Shown piece after piece: positions 14,195 through 48,860 of a stretch of DNA of 48,860 nt. A program made the translations under genes and the position numbers. Location of the stretch: NCBI GenBank assembly GCA_036676985.1, contig JAKFBU010000064.1, forward strand, positions 1-48,860. Reading direction: 5' to 3'. The notes below the pieces were generated by a model. The model had not been told where the DNA came from, did not search any database, and worked only from the letters and a program-made list of their open reading frames with translations. Origin of the DNA: Candidatus Sericytochromatia bacterium. GTDB taxonomy: Bacteria; Cyanobacteriota; Sericytochromatia; S15B-MN24; UBA4093. Numbering within the stretch: the stretch's first letter is position 1; the number at the start of each line of letters is the position of its first letter.

Positions 14195-14992
14195 TTACTT
14201 GAAGAGGCCGCCGATGGCGTTCACCAGGCCCGCGACGCCCTGAATGCCCTGGTTGACCTGGGTGCTCCAGTCGCCGCCGCCGGTCGGGTTGAAGGGCGGG
14301 GTGCCCCCATAGGGCTGCTGGTAACCCGGCTGCGGATAGGCGGGCTGCTGGTAACCAGGCTGCGGGTAGGCGGGCTGCTGGTAGCCGGGATACTGCTGAT
14401 ACACGGGCGGCTGGCTAGGGGGCTGCTGGTTCGGCACGTAGACCGAGGTCGCCGTGGAGGGCGTGGCGGCCGGCTGCTCGGGCTTCTTCTTGTTGAAGAG
14501 GCCGACGATGCCCGTGATGAGGGGGATGGCCGTGTCGATGACCGGAGCCGTCTTCTGGACGAACTCGTCGTAGCCCTTGTCGTTGACCACGCCGCGGAAA
14601 GCGCCGAGCGTCTGCGAGATGGGACCCTGGTAGCCGGGCATCCCCGGGGCGTAACCGGGCTGCGGATAGCCGGGCTGCGGATAGCCCGCGGGGTAGGTGG
14701 GCTGGGGCTGAGCCGTCGGCTGGGGATAGGTCGGCTGCGGGTAGCCGGGCTGCTGGGGGTAGTTGGGGTTGTTCCAGGGCTGCGGCTGCGCGCCGACGGG
14801 CTGCTGAGTGCCCAGGGGCTGCGGGGTCGAACGGCCCGGAGACGGCGTGTAGGACGACGCGTAGGGGTTGTAGGCGGGCGGGTTACCAGCGGTGGGCTGA
14901 ACCGAGGCCGCCATGCCGGACTGTGCGGGCGCCGCCGGGGTGTTGCGGTACTGCGCGTAGAAGTTCTGGAAGTTGTCGATGGCGTTCGGCAT
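14195..14992 (-). CDS. Pro/Gln/Tyr-rich low-complexity hypothetical protein
   Basis: GGGAGG RBS before ATG 14992; YPQPG/YQQPA repeats; two short amphipathic helices ending GLF(N/K). Confidence 0.8.
   Translation of the reverse strand: MPNAIDNFQNFYAQYRNTPAAPAQSGMAASVQPTAGNPPAYNPYASSYTPSPGRSTPQPLGTQQPVGAQPQPWNNPNYPQQPGYPQPTYPQPTAQPQPTYPAGYPQPGYPQPGYAPGMPGYQGPISQTLGAFRGVVNDKGYDEFVQKTAPVIDTAIPLITGIVGLFNKKKPEQPAATPSTATSVYVPNQQPPSQPPVYQQYPGYQQPAYPQPGYQQPAYPQPGYQQPYGGTPPFNPTGGGDWSTQVNQGIQGVAGLVNAIGGLFK
14312..14389 (-). repeat. 30 bp coding tandem repeat (about 2.6 units; YQQPAYPQPG)
   Basis: gggctgctggtaacc(c/a)ggctgcgg(a/g)taggc repeated. Confidence 0.8.
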
Positions 14993-15024
14993 AGGGGACC
15001 TCCCTCGGGTGAGTGACACCCTGG

Positions 15025-15089
15025 TTATGGGAGATCTCGGCCGACATTCGGTAAAGGGATCCGGAAGCCGAGAGTAACTTTCGGTAAAG
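15025..15089 (-). promoter_or_regulatory. shared CTTTACCGA motif (two copies 33 bp apart) with downstream CCCATAA
   Basis: TCGGTAAAG at 15048-56 and 15081-89 on plus strand; same motif at 25855 and 29536. Confidence 0.6.
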
Positions 15090-25843: not shown

Positions 25844-25887
25844 TTTTACGTCGCCTTTACCGATTGGACCGCCCCGGGAGGCGATAG
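25844..25887 (+). promoter_or_regulatory. shared CTTTACCGA motif with downstream GGCGATAG
   Basis: TTTAC-N6-TTTACCGA then N20-ATAG upstream of the amidase gene. Confidence 0.6.
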
Positions 25888-25923: not shown

Positions 25924-27369
25924 ATGGCAGTCCGTCTGGAAACTACCTACGCCTCGATGCGCTCGCCCGTCGCCGCCGGCGGCGGCGCCAAGCTGCAGAA
26001 GCCGGGCGTCATCTCCATGCCCTCGCCCAACCAGAACAGCCGGCCGGGCGGACCGAACGACATCAGCGCCGTGGTCCTGCACCACACGGCGGGCGGCGGC
26101 ACCGCCCAGGGCACGGGCCGCTACTTCCAGAACCCGTCCGCGCAGGTGAGCTCGCACTACACCGTCGGCAAGGACGGCGCCATCGTGCAGTCGGTCCCCG
26201 ACGGCAAGCGCGCCTGGCATGCGGGCGTGAGCAGCTTCAAGGGCCGCGACGACGTCAACGACTTCTCCATCGGCATCGAGATCGTCAACTGGGGCAACGG
26301 CAAGGATCCCTACACCGACGCCCAGTACAACGCGCTCATCAACCTGGTGGCCTGGATCTGCCAGACCTACAAGGTGCCTGTCGACCGCATCACCGGCCAC
26401 AAGGACGTCGCCCTGCCCCGGGGTCGCAAGACCGATCCTTCGCCCAACTTCGACTGGAACCGCGTCCGCAAGGGCGTCGAGGCCAAGCTCAAGGGCTCGA
26501 GCGCGCCCGCTCCGGCGCCCGCCCCGAGCAACCCGCCCAAGGGCGATCAGTGGCTCTACACGGTGAAGAACGGCGACTCGCTGAGCCGGATCGCCAAGCA
26601 GCACTTGGGCAACGAGAACCGCTGGCGCGAGATCTACGAGCTGAACCGGGACAAGATCAAGAACCCGAACCTCATCTACCCGGGCCAGGTGCTGCGCATG
26701 CCCCCGAAGGGCGGCGCCAGCAAGCCCGATCCCAAGCCCAACGTCCCGCCGGCTCCCAAGCCGCCGACCTCGCAGCCCCCCAAGCCGCCCGTCACCCCGA
26801 CTCCTCCGGTCACGCCGCCCCCCGTCGTTCCGACCCCGCCGGTCTCGCAGCCGACGGTGCCCCCCGCACCGCCCGCGCCTCCGGCCCCCTCGCTGCCGGT
26901 GGTGGGCGACGTGAACAGCGGCCTGCGCCTCGGCGGCGCGGTCATGATGAACTACCTCGAGTCGGGCGCCGGCTCGGGCGGCATCGCCCAGGGCATCCTC
27001 GCTCCCGGCGTCACCGGAGGCGCGCGCGGCTTCTTCTCGGGCATCGTGCAGTCGCTGCCGAGCCTCCTGAAGCGCAACGTCGTCACCGCCGCCATCGTCT
27101 CGGCCGTGACCAACGGCCTGGACCTCGTCAAGGGCCGGGTGACCGGCAAGCAGGCAGCAGCGGGTTTCGCAGCCGACACGGTGGCCTACACCGGCATCGG
27201 CGCCACCTCGACCGCCATCGGGGCGGCCGTGGGCAGCCTCCTGGGGCCCCTCGGCACCATCGGCGGCCTCTTGGTCGGCAGCGCGCTGGGCGTCGGCATG
27301 GGCTGGCTCTACGAGAAGTTCGGCCGCAGCCAGCTCGTCGGAGCGATCGGCAACTTCTTCGGCCGATAG
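25924..27369 (+). CDS. N-acetylmuramoyl-L-alanine amidase (Amidase_2) + LysM + Pro linker + glycine-zipper C-terminal domain
   Basis: VVLHHT, SSHY, AWHAG, SIGIE, GHKD..RK.DP; LysM YTVKNGDSLSRIA...N..I.NPNLIYPGQVL; AAGGAG RBS. Confidence 0.9.
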   Translation: MAVRLETTYASMRSPVAAGGGAKLQKPGVISMPSPNQNSRPGGPNDISAVVLHHTAGGGTAQGTGRYFQNPSAQVSSHYTVGKDGAIVQSVPDGKRAWHAGVSSFKGRDDVNDFSIGIEIVNWGNGKDPYTDAQYNALINLVAWICQTYKVPVDRITGHKDVALPRGRKTDPSPNFDWNRVRKGVEAKLKGSSAPAPAPAPSNPPKGDQWLYTVKNGDSLSRIAKQHLGNENRWREIYELNRDKIKNPNLIYPGQVLRMPPKGGASKPDPKPNVPPAPKPPTSQPPKPPVTPTPPVTPPPVVPTPPVSQPTVPPAPPAPPAPSLPVVGDVNSGLRLGGAVMMNYLESGAGSGGIAQGILAPGVTGGARGFFSGIVQSLPSLLKRNVVTAAIVSAVTNGLDLVKGRVTGKQAAAGFAADTVAYTGIGATSTAIGAAVGSLLGPLGTIGGLLVGSALGVGMGWLYEKFGRSQLVGAIGNFFGR

Positions 27370-27376
27370 GCCAACG

Positions 27377-27413
27377 CGCAACGCCCCCGGAACACGGTTC
27401 CGGGGGCGTTGCG
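27377..27413. terminator. hairpin between convergent genes
   Basis: CGCAACGCCCCCGGAAC-ACG-GTTCCGGGGGCGTTGCG. Confidence 0.75.
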
Positions 27414-27428
27414 ACGTTCAGCGGAAGC

Positions 27429-28499
27429 CTAGGAGAGGCGCGCCTCGGTCTGGGGGTCGAAGACGTGGATCTTCGCCGGGTCGACGTTGAAGCGGACGGT
27501 CTGACCCACCTTGGGGCTCTCGGCCTCGGAGACGCGGGCGATGATCGGGCCGCGCTCGCCGGGCAGGTAGACGTAGGTCTCGAAGCCCATGGGTTCTGTC
27601 ACCTCGACCGGGCCCGTGAGGCCCAGGTCGCCCTCGGCGATCGCCATGTGCTCGGGTCGGATGCCCACGACCACCGCGCCGTCGCGGAAGCTCGCCCTCT
27701 TGGGCAGCACGAACTTGAAGCCCTTGCCCTCCACCACGGCCTCGGAGCCCGCGACCTTCATGGTGCCGTCGAGGAGGTTCATCTGGGGCGAACCGATGAA
27801 GGTCGCCACGAAGAGGTTCGCCGGGTGGTTGTAGACCTCGTGCGGCGTGTCGCACTGCTGGAGGTCGCCCGCCTTCATGATGGCGATGCGATCGCCGAGC
27901 GTCATGGCCTCGGTCTGGTCGTGCGTGACGTAGACGAAGGTGGTCTGGAGCCGCTGGTGCAGCTTCTTGATCTCGGCGCGCATGGAGACGCGCAGCTTGG
28001 CGTCGAGGTTCGAGAGCGGCTCGTCCATCAGGAAGACCTTGGGCTCGCGGACGATGGCGCGGCCGATGGCGATGCGCTGGCGCTGGCCGCCCGAGAGGGC
28101 CTTGGGCTTGCGGTCCAGGAGGTGCTCGATCTCGAGCGACTTGGCGGCCTCCATGACCCGCTGGTGGATCTCGGCCTTGGGCATCTTGCGCAGCTTGAGC
28201 GCGAAGGCCATGTTCTCGTAGCAGGTCATGTGCGGGTAGAGCGCGTAGTTCTGGAAGACCATGGCGATGTCCCGGTTCTTCGGGTGGATGTCGTTGACGA
28301 CCATGTCGCCGATGGACAGGAAGCCGCCGGAGATCTCCTCGAGCCCCGCGATCATGCGCAGGGCCGTCGACTTGCCGCAGCCGGAAGGCCCGACCAGCAC
28401 GAGGAACTCCTTGTCCTCGATGCGCAGGTTGAGGTCCTTGATGACCGGGGCGCTGTCCCCGTACTGCTTCTTGATGTGGTCGAAGACGACGTTTGCCAT
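27429..28499 (-). CDS. sugar ABC transporter ATP-binding protein (UgpC/MsmX/MalK family)
   Basis: GPSGCGKS, VFQNYALYPH, LSGGQRQR, DEPLSNLD, VTHDQ, TOBE-like tail. Confidence 0.94.
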   Translation of the reverse strand: MANVVFDHIKKQYGDSAPVIKDLNLRIEDKEFLVLVGPSGCGKSTALRMIAGLEEISGGFLSIGDMVVNDIHPKNRDIAMVFQNYALYPHMTCYENMAFALKLRKMPKAEIHQRVMEAAKSLEIEHLLDRKPKALSGGQRQRIAIGRAIVREPKVFLMDEPLSNLDAKLRVSMRAEIKKLHQRLQTTFVYVTHDQTEAMTLGDRIAIMKAGDLQQCDTPHEVYNHPANLFVATFIGSPQMNLLDGTMKVAGSEAVVEGKGFKFVLPKRASFRDGAVVVGIRPEHMAIAEGDLGLTGPVEVTEPMGFETYVYLPGERGPIIARVSEAESPKVGQTVRFNVDPAKIHVFDPQTEARLS

Positions 28500-28673
28500 A
28501 GGGCGCTTAAAATCCTCCGTGAGCCAGGGGCGGATCCGGAATCGGCCCTGTCATTTTGGCACATCCCATGCCGAAGGGCCAGACGTCGGGCGCGACGGCA
28601 CGCTTTGCCCCGGCCGGTCACCCCTCCTTGATACCCGGACGAGACCTCCCGGAAACCCGGAAAACAGCACCAC

Positions 28674-28699
28674 AAAACCCCCTGGCATGCGCCAGGGGG
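28674..28699 (-). terminator. intrinsic terminator
   Basis: CCCCCTGGC-GCAT-GCCAGGGGG-TTTT on the minus strand. Confidence 0.75.
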
Positions 28700-28727
28700 C
28701 CTTGGTGTGGAGGGTTGGTTGGAGGAA

Positions 28728-28803
28728 TCGTACCTAACAAAACCAGGCATTGAATCCCGCGGCCGCCGGGGGGCGGCTTAAGGAACAGTTTTGTTAGGCA
28801 CTC
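28728..28803. mobile_element. 76 bp MITE-like element, copy 2 (inverted, one end degenerate)
   Basis: Reverse complement GAGTGCCTAACAAAACTGTTCCTT..GCCGCC..GGCGGCC..ATGCCTGGTTTTGTTAGGT matches 12091-12168. Confidence 0.7.
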
Positions 28804-28810
28804 ATGGCCG

Positions 28811-29458
28811 CTACTGGGCCGCGGGGTAAGCCGGAATCTGGGAGGGAGCCGTCGGGACCGGAGCCGTGGCGGGCGCGGTCGAGTTGCCCATCTGCTGAGC
28901 CGAAGCCGTCAGGCTCTGGATGCCCTGGGTGACGGTCGCCGAAAACTTGCTGCGGACGTGATCCTCGTAGAGCTTGCCGGCCAGGAGGCCGATGCCGATG
29001 CCGAGGGCCGTGCCGACGAACGGGATGGGGATGAGGCTGCCGAGGAAGCCGCCGATGGTGGTGGCGGTGGCGCCGATGGCGGTGTAGGCCGCGGTGTCCG
29101 CGACGAAGTTGCCGGCCGCCTGCATCGGCTTGACCTTGCCGGTGGCGAGCTCGTAGACGTTGCTGATGCCCGAGAGCAGGGCGGAGGTCAGGAAGTTGGC
29201 CTTGAGGGCCTTACCGATGGTCTGGAACACGCCGCCGAAGGCCCCGCTGAAGCGACCGGCCACGGCTCCGATGCCCTCGACGCCGGCGTTGGCGGTGAGG
29301 CGGCTGCCCTGGAAGACGTCCTTGGCCATCTTGATCTGCGAGACGCTGTTGACGACGGGTGCAGCCATCCGCATGCCTGCCATGTTGTCGCTGTTGGCAG
29401 TGGGGAAGAAGCTGCGGTTCGCCGCCTGCAGGTTCGCGTTCGAGCTCTGAATAGCCAT
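28811..29458 (-). CDS. hypothetical glycine-zipper membrane protein, paralogous to the amidase C-terminus
   Basis: AAGGAGG RBS before ATG 29458; QAA..F.ADT.AYT.IGAT...IG...GSL shared with 25924-27369. Confidence 0.85.
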   Translation of the reverse strand: MAIQSSNANLQAANRSFFPTANSDNMAGMRMAAPVVNSVSQIKMAKDVFQGSRLTANAGVEGIGAVAGRFSGAFGGVFQTIGKALKANFLTSALLSGISNVYELATGKVKPMQAAGNFVADTAAYTAIGATATTIGGFLGSLIPIPFVGTALGIGIGLLAGKLYEDHVRSKFSATVTQGIQSLTASAQQMGNSTAPATAPVPTAPSQIPAYPAAQ

Positions 29459-29512: not shown

Positions 29513-29544
29513 TTATCGGGGGCCTGTCCGGCAATTCGGTAAAG
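29513..29544 (-). promoter_or_regulatory. shared CTTTACCGA motif with sigma28-like CCCGATAA
   Basis: CTTTACCGA-N15-CCCGATAA. Confidence 0.6.
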
Positions 29545-29739: not shown

Positions 29740-29811
29740 AGGGGCGTCGCCAAGTGGTAAGGCATCGGTCTTTGGATCCGACATTCGCAGGTTCGATCCC
29801 TGCCGCCCCTG
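29740..29811 (+). tRNA. tRNA-Gln(TTG), no encoded CCA
   Basis: AGGGGCG/CGCCCCT acceptor stem, GCCAAGTGGTAAGGC D-arm, CTTTGGA anticodon loop, GGTTCGATCCC. Confidence 0.95.
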
Positions 29812-29815
29812 CTTT

Positions 29816-48614: not shown

Positions 48615-48860
48615 CTAGGCGCGGGCCGCGCCGTTCAGGTCGTTGACGGCCGCCAGGAAGGTGCCGTAGCCGTTGAGACCGCCGTTGACGGCCCGGCGCA
48701 CCGCCTCCCAGTTGGAGTTGCCCGCCATGTCGGGGATGCCGCGGTTCTTGAAGTACTGGACCAGGATCTTGGCCGAGACCTCGGGATCCAGGGCCAGGTT
48801 CGGGTTGTTCTCGAGGTCCACGCCCAGTTGCTTGCCGTACTCGCGGTAGTTCGCGCGACC
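48615..48860 (-). CDS. GH19 chitinase/lysozyme-like hydrolase, C-terminal part (5' end outside the window)
   Basis: GRANY..YG..LG.DL..NP.LA.DP..SA, RRAVNGG.NG. Confidence 0.8.
   Translation of the reverse strand, partial: GRANYREYGKQLGVDLENNPNLALDPEVSAKILVQYFKNRGIPDMAGNSNWEAVRRAVNGGLNGYGTFLAAVNDLNGAARA

Follow-up and report, generated by a model that had tools for sequence, protein, structure and literature searches.

A class-wide glycine-zipper domain family of Sericytochromatia and its possible link to a second flagellum-derived export machine

The window analysed here, a stretch of 48,860 nucleotides (nt) from Candidatus Sericytochromatia bacterium (assembly GCA_036676985.1, contig JAKFBU010000064.1), carries two genes, A and B, whose products share a glycine-zipper domain, fused in A to a peptidoglycan amidase and a LysM domain and standing alone in B. 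The domain was found throughout the class, several of its members share a promoter motif with signal-less lytic enzymes, and nearly all class genomes also hold a second set of flagellum-derived export genes. We hypothesize, with somewhat less than even confidence, that A and B are members of a class-wide family whose products insert in membranes and are exported by this second machine against other cells.

The glycine-zipper domain and its heads

The features of A and B are given below by position in the window and strand.

25924-27369 (+): gene A, 481 amino acids (aa), signal-less; amidase, LysM, Pro-rich linker and membrane tail in this order
26056..26445 (+): Amidase_2 domain of A (aa 45-174, E 2.5e-39)
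26557..26703 (+): peptidoglycan-binding LysM domain of A (aa 212-260, E 2e-12)
26704..26898 (+): Pro-rich linker of A, read from the sequence
27010..27366 (+): A copy of the shared glycine-zipper domain (aa 363-481), with a GxxxG run in the last hydrophobic helix
28811-29458 (-): gene B, stand-alone domain member, 215 aa, low-complexity N-terminus; domain at aa 66-183 (28910-29263)
25856-25886 (+): promoter-like motif of A, TTTACCG-N19-CGATA, 38 nt upstream of the gene; wrong-spacer and reversed-pattern controls
29514-29543 (-): promoter-like motif upstream of B, TTTACCG-N18-CGATA; the best-scoring site of the genome

The homology of the two C-termini, proposed in the first-pass annotation, is borne out by the alignment of A aa 363-471 with B aa 66-172 (49/113 identities, 43%, E 5e-21). 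Its statement that neither protein has a Sec or Tat signal or a lipobox agrees with a crude hydropathy test, by which A and B have no hydrophobic N-terminus; twin-arginines and Cys residues in the first 60 aa are likewise missing.

Judged by sequence comparison, the shared region is a real, undescribed glycine-zipper family of about 120 aa that is nearly always C-terminal. A search with a single sequence detected it in 36/61 genomes, including all 26 others of the order, 8/20 elsewhere in the class and 1/14 in the phylum, while a profile of 80 sequences found it in 47/47 class genomes with 1-17 matches per genome. Outside the class, the profile gave one weak match each (E 4e-14 to 5e-9) in 20/254 phylum genomes; five cyanobacterial or other singleton matches are long proteins with another architecture. 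Among 1.84 billion representatives, 258 matches were obtained at E<=1e-10, and tblastn against plasmids and phages returned nothing real. Matches to PHROG families (tape-measure, tail lysin and unknown; best E 1e-10) were rejected as shared glycine-zipper composition and not homology. The source genome holds nine domain copies in proteins of 179 to 870 aa, and the A/B pair is therefore not special in itself. Members often stand in tandem pairs or triplets. In the domain tree (80 rows, 122 columns), the B orthologues form one supported group of nine and the enzyme-fused copies fall into three supported groups and one stray row on an unresolved backbone.

In 171/176 homologues no more than 80 aa separate the end of the domain from the C-terminus, and the domain stands alone or behind varied heads; this, together with its hydrophobic character, upholds the earlier view of a modular membrane-type domain. 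It has GxxxG runs in its one or two hydrophobic segments, one of which is a strongly hydrophobic stretch of 19 aa (Kyte-Doolittle 1.7-2.2), and conserved polar residues, of which D, Y and N are invariant. A signal-like hydrophobic N-terminus occurs in 2/167 homologues vs 33% of the 3780 proteins of the source genome. An AlphaFold model of moderate confidence (predicted local distance difference test, pLDDT, 74; predicted template modelling score, pTM, 0.43) consists of three long helices; another model reached a pTM of 0.28. Four fold searches gave no significant match, and no colicin was among the fold matches listed; the top Foldseek rows, all non-significant, were mostly complex I subunits, which we take to be of the Tim17 family, and a sequence match to Tim22 at E 3.6 is a lead only. 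No curated Pfam or NCBIfam family matched above its cut-off. At E<=0.05 the 80 members matched 19 families. Matches to the named glycine-zipper families Gly-zipper_Omp (14/80), DUF1269 (24/80) and MamC (9/80) were partial and weak, with bit scores below the cut-off where listed.

The heads were surveyed in 78 of 106 fetched domain members. Pfam cargo was recognised in 16/78, namely ten amidase-LysM, two CHAP/DUF1287-LysM and four LysM heads alone, and the remaining 62 had none; most members thus stand alone, and fusions are exceptional. The range of cargo is narrower than the first-pass annotation implied: all 16 heads are peptidoglycan-related and confined to families f1 and f4. The amidase head of A is a strong Amidase_2 (PF01510) match (135 bits vs a cut-off of 26). 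In 11/11 examined fused amidases the motifs LHHT, GIEIVN, TGH[KR]D and RKxxP, which we take from AmpD-type enzymes to be the zinc and catalytic residues, are kept, apart from LHHT in two N-terminally truncated open reading frames (ORFs).

Among 51 longer database matches, six showed the architectures listed above, two WXG100 (one below cut-off), one RES and one a partly matched tape-measure protein. In other lineages, P0078, P0116, P0130, P0134, P0138, P0135 and P0158 have an enzyme-like, RES or WXG100 N-terminus followed by a related hydrophobic tail, which could possibly be a translocation module of polymorphic toxins.

Promoter, regulon and the second flagellum-derived set

The promoter motif noted earlier as common to A and B proved to be spacer-specific genome-wide. 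In the source genome, TTTACC-Nx-CGATA was counted 11 times with x=19-20 and twice with x=24, and it is absent with spacers of 12-18, 21-23 or 25. Across 27 genomes of the order, 118 exact matches were found in 26/27, compared with nine for the reversed pattern and seven for a wrong spacer. Another scan for the TTTACC/CGATA motif gave matches in 23/106. A weight matrix placed 23 genes above a score of 14 vs 0-5 with four wrong spacers; these controls alone count, since the top genes were themselves represented among the sites used to train the matrix. Outside the order, a diverged motif picked by eye stands in 7/41 upstream regions (shuffle maximum 2).

The promoter of the flagellin gene differs from this motif and is of the canonical sigma-28 type, with the FliA consensus TAAA-N15-GCCGATAA; the promoters of A and B share its -10 part alone, with TTTACCG lying further upstream, and thus do not belong to the canonical FliA regulon. 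Their -10 element CGATA resembles the FliA box before this genome's flagellin.

In 18 scanned regulon genes (16 from the top 26), we found a second amidase, LysM-glucosaminidase, LysM-GH19 and LysM-C39 proteins, two phospholipases D, an EEP hydrolase, C11 and S8 proteases and several unknowns; Pro/Gln/Tyr-rich repeat proteins are also in the regulon. LysM was present in 6/30 regulon proteins, which is high against 28 Pfam LysM matches genome-wide; a p-value for this enrichment is circular, as the profile behind it was made from those six proteins. A signal-like N-terminus is missing from 22 of the top 26 regulon genes, two of which resemble lipoproteins with a mis-called start. The D-x-V-x-L-S motif, presumably FlgM-like, is enriched in the regulon (7/21 vs 170/2511) and not in the domain proteins (2/9). 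The 870-aa domain member lies on the same strand two genes downstream of a top-scoring LysM gene. Behind a top motif site, four co-directional signal-less genes (G000:C43:83011-88757 (-), L199) encode a LysM protein, a 287-aa unknown, the 870-aa repeat protein ending in the domain and a 197-aa unknown, a candidate secreted-protein operon. A Tad/Flp pilus cluster recognised by eye (G000:C41:95970-106726 (-)) has a weak motif site, 13.8, at the Flp pilin gene.

Beside the ordinary flagellar system, the source genome holds second copies of FlhA, FlhB, FliP/Q/R, FliI/H, FliF, FliE, FliM/N, FlgB/C/F/G, FlgD, FlgE and FliK, together with FlgA/H/I, assigned by eye from sequence and gene order, and a FliA-like sigma factor inside the set. 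An export gate and its ATPase, a rod, L/P rings, a short hook and FliK are thus encoded in the set, which contributes neither a junction, cap or filament nor a torque domain; FlgK, FliD and FlgM are single-copy, and FliG_C matches are confined to the motility operon and one other cassette. The second FlhA scores higher with flagellar FlhA (758 bits) than with SctV (631 bits). FliO and FliP of this set are fused in one 395-aa ORF (G000:C30:67517-68704 (-)). A stand-alone protein matching just the cytoplasmic part of FlhA/SctV (G000:C19:67949-68848 (-)) has similar counterparts in many class genomes, several per f3 genome and some near LysM matches (G011:C6 near 51100-52400); these are possible accessory parts of the export gate.

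The second sigma factor and the second ATPase were each found in 44/47 class genomes. In the three genomes where the sigma factor is missing, the contig ends at or near flgI (G006, G018) or completeness is 73% (G044), which accounts for its absence. The source genome encodes two FliA-like and five SigB/SigF-like sigma factors, and the second FliA-like factor differs from FliA in its promoter-recognition regions, which we take to be regions 2.4, 3.0 and 4.2. The motility flagellum is intact alongside the second set in 41/47 genomes. In family f7 (G030, G036, G040, G042, G043, G046), flagellin/FlgL gave a match in 0/6 genomes, of which one is 93% complete in 3 contigs and another 98% complete; FlgK, FliG_C and FlgM were found in 0/3 genomes tested and FliD in 0/2. 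The same family keeps the second ATPase and sigma factor (6/6), a full FlhA (5/6) and the domain (6/6), with FlgH/FlgI beside the second sigma factor in the two genomes read, and so presents a natural case of a filament-less machine. The second machine therefore does something other than swimming. It has no known late substrates, and we infer from the gene content that the most evident candidates are members of the domain family and of the lytic regulon. Operon linkage in G030 was rejected, since the domain gene lies 6.8 kb from flhA with unrelated genes between.

Neighbourhood of A and B

The other features of the window are the following.

27378..27412 (strand not assigned): inverted repeat, GC-rich, lying where the ends of A and malK converge and read from the sequence; likely a terminator, though it has no T-run and was not flagged by the scanner
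27429-28499 (-): MalK-type ABC ATPase gene between A and B (ABC_tran, OB_MalK and TOBE domain matches)
15023-15055 (-): third motif site of the window (score 26), upstream of ORF 14195-14992

Gene A is flanked by accD and malK, and B by malK and a tRNA-Gln gene; no immunity gene was found beside either in the window neighbourhood. Convergence of the two genes around an ABC ATPase, as first described, needs correction: the MalK-type ATPase does lie between them, but B and malK are co-directional and A alone converges. The amidase gene faces malK in ten relatives from f1 and f4 with the stand-alone copy beyond malK. The cargo is exchanged at this site in two genomes, where CHAP/DUF1287 replaces the amidase before LysM and the tail (G016:C53 and G022:C193; L016, L018). 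The A/malK/B arrangement is kept in two families, and B orthologues or other copies are also present where no fusion was found; the arrangement is thus old, and a physical A-B partnership does not follow from it. The ATPase is a conserved neighbour.

The ORF at 14195-14992 (-) encodes a signal-less, Pro/Gln/Tyr-rich protein of 265 aa, which belongs to the same regulon, lacks the glycine-zipper domain and has no match in Pfam or NCBIfam. The tRNA-Gln gene (29740-29812 (+)) stands directly upstream of B, and the genes from 29956 onward, by eye kinases, nitric-oxide-reductase-like genes and heavy-metal ATPases, may have been inserted at that tRNA. At the contig end, a truncated ORF (48615-48860 (-)) resembles by eye the C-terminus of a GH19 lysozyme/chitinase.

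Function, alternative explanations and known systems

According to our hypothesis, a dedicated promoter would drive the joint expression of several members of the family and of signal-less peptidoglycan hydrolases, phospholipases and proteases; the best candidate for its sigma factor is the FliA paralogue within the second flagellar set. The products would leave the cell unfolded through the second flagellum-derived hook-basal body, guided by their low-complexity N-termini, and such a route is plausible given the genes present. The C-terminal glycine-zipper helices may then insert in the target-cell membrane, several paralogues forming a translocon-like or depolarising assembly, and the tail of A would tether its amidase-LysM head at the target's wall, with predation or competition as the purpose. 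B would be one of many stand-alone members and not the dedicated partner of A that the first-pass annotation had envisaged. We also counted in favour of this hypothesis the distant homologues behind WXG100 and RES domains and the weak pore-forming leads, i.e., the colicin A hairpin, the colicin clusters and the C-terminal region of BTH_I2691. A further point in its favour is the S/T/P/Q/N/A-richness of the N-termini, which in 51/69 relatives exceeds the 90th percentile set by signal-less background proteins.

Several observations weigh against it. The five SigB/SigF-like factors could equally read the motif, which in its exact form is at chance level in 20 class genomes outside the order and in the source genome is strong at 4/9 domain genes, weak (11.5) at a fifth and below 4 at four. 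The regulon list includes at least three lipoproteins and the Flp pilin. The domain genes lie outside the operons of the machine, at a distance of 6.8 kb in the nearest case, and no chaperone was recognised by eye beside the nine own copies or in G030, the neighbours having been given no dedicated family scan. The score for N-terminal composition was devised when the sequences had already been seen, and the 69 relatives are mutually homologous. No translocator family of the SseC/YopD/IpaC type was listed among the matches of the 80 domain members or of 17 full-length proteins and long fragments, all matches to pore toxins are non-significant, and non-toxic MamC is matched as weakly (9/80). The co-occurrence of domain and machine is class-wide and rests on shared descent, with f7 as one informative loss, and the head of A is AmpD-like.

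The last point bears on the possibility that A is an ordinary recycling amidase held by its tail at the inner membrane, with B and its paralogues as small membrane proteins in an unrelated housekeeping role, which we regard as very improbable. A signal-less protein with a C-terminal hydrophobic segment by default keeps its head in the cytoplasm. The best NCBIfam match of A is the cytoplasmic recycling enzyme AmpD (NF008758), which leaves the earlier premise of an extracytoplasmic amidase substrate insecure. The score of 129.8 bits is nevertheless below the cut-off of 143 and A is multi-domain, which places it outside this equivalog. LysM binds polymeric peptidoglycan, CHAP takes the place of the amidase in two genomes, and the polar residues kept invariant over about 120 aa, an up to 17-fold expansion and the shared lytic regulon also argue against a simple anchor. 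A self-directed role in envelope remodelling or differentiation is less improbable and the chief alternative, and we still consider it unlikely: here the tail would be an anchor or scaffold in membranes of the producing cell itself, and a regulon read by SigB/SigF-like factors would rebuild its wall for a stage of rest or dispersal. Sporulation uses signal-less LysM proteins and amidases, and the presence of the five SigB/SigF-like factors, the lipoproteins and Pro/Gln/Tyr-rich repeat proteins of the regulon, the solely peptidoglycan-related cargo in the class and the matches to MamC and generic glycine-zipper families, as good as those to toxins, are all consistent with it. The lack of an immunity gene flanking A and B fits a self-directed function and equally a one-step export past the producer's wall. 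The flagellin-like -10 element, the co-regulation of phospholipases, proteases and an EEP hydrolase, and the L/P rings of a machine without known late substrates, which imply passage through the wall and the outer membrane, speak against this role.

The family could also be structural, polymerising on the hook tip or the cell surface as a flagellin substitute or a CdzC-like aggregate with LysM and amidase heads as adhesins or tips and no pore, and this appears improbable, standing between the two explanations above. The second set without junction, cap and filament genes would leave room for such a part, and the multi-copy family, often in tandem pairs or triplets, and the three long helices of the modelled domain are in line with it; glycine-zipper proteins can aggregate on producer surfaces (PMC5380434). 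The hydrophobic 19-aa segment, however, suits a bilayer better than a soluble filament, and no flagellin-like match was obtained by sequence or fold.

The lifestyle of Sericytochromatia, the sister class of the photosynthetic cyanobacteria, is poorly known, and there is apparently no paper on their secretion systems in the literature searched, whose scope leaves out most subscription journals. It is plausible that the domain family and its regulon provide the payload of an undescribed export machine present across the class. For this second machine, candidate substrates can now be named together with a promoter and a candidate sigma factor, which makes it testable in laboratory hosts without culture. 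If our hypothesis is true, it would provide a separate case of a flagellum turned into a protein-delivery device with bacteria as the target, and a new module for membrane insertion, also seen elsewhere behind WXG100 and RES domains. A bolder extension, which we hold to be unlikely, would make the Sericytochromatia class-wide contact-dependent predators or antagonists, in which a torque-less and filament-less hook-basal body acts as an injectisome whose origin from the flagellum is independent of the known type III secretion systems (T3SSs), the domain family forms a multi-paralogue translocon in which some subunits bear a wall-cutting head, and a private sigma-28 paralogue switches the lytic payload on.

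In CdzC/CdzD (PMC5380434) and Tde1 (PMC10240207), GxxxG runs serve membrane permeabilisation or cargo delivery, and Cdz needs two proteins. The likeness to our domain lies in these runs; Cdz relies on type I secretion together with an immunity protein, and Tde1 has an N-terminal zipper and a secretion system of type VI (T6SS). The colicin hairpin and the T6SS toxins BTH_I2691, VasX and Tke5 resemble the domain in a Gly/Ala-rich hydrophobic helical region followed by an amphipathic C-terminal helix (PMC13133200). Unlike colicin and BTH_I2691, the domain proteins have no receptor-binding, translocation or MIX domain and no immunity gene, and no match to the ten-helix fold was found. Colicin A matched at a non-significant E of 0.084; the profile-profile score against colicin was 22.6 compared with shuffled maxima of 16.2 and 21.9, with an hhalign probability of 7% over 27 columns, and Atlas colicin clusters appeared at 0.88 and 0.83. 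The colicin pore family PF01024 is absent from the 19 families matched by the 80 members. NF041559 (BTH_I2691/VasX) was matched in 2/17 proteins (E 0.002 and 0.0003), in its C-terminal region only (positions 705-838), at best with 19.3 bits against a cut-off of 150 and without a MIX domain. Since MamC and tape-measure proteins match about as well, composition may explain all these hints of pore-forming kin.

The translocators SctE and SctB are represented by YopB/YopD and IpaB/IpaC. Like them, the domain proteins combine a signal-less disordered N-terminus with hydrophobic C-terminal helices, several paralogues and a type III-type gate in the genome; unlike them, they match no translocator family, have no recognised adjacent chaperone and are not clustered with the machine, which itself has a rod, hook and L/P rings and not the needle and secretin of a T3SS. 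In Lysobacter enzymogenes, a flagellar export apparatus without a filament was reported to export hydrolases toxic to other microbes (PMC7688988); that system is described as the remnant of a single flagellum, whereas the Sericytochromatia carry a separate class-wide second set. N-terminal flagellar export signals have been documented in Campylobacter (PMC2764114). In Myxococcus, the Kil (Tad) system and a needle-less T3SS* are a further parallel, the type III-derived machine being needed for prey lysis, which goes with local peptidoglycan degradation (PMC12075869, PMC12428579), and the Tad cluster of the source genome adds to the likeness. The T3SS* is described without secretin, needle and translocon, while the machine considered here has a rod, a hook, outer-membrane rings and its own FliA-like sigma factor. 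By analogy, the proposed function of the family would be most like that of the type III translocators or of the lytic arm of Myxococcus predation.

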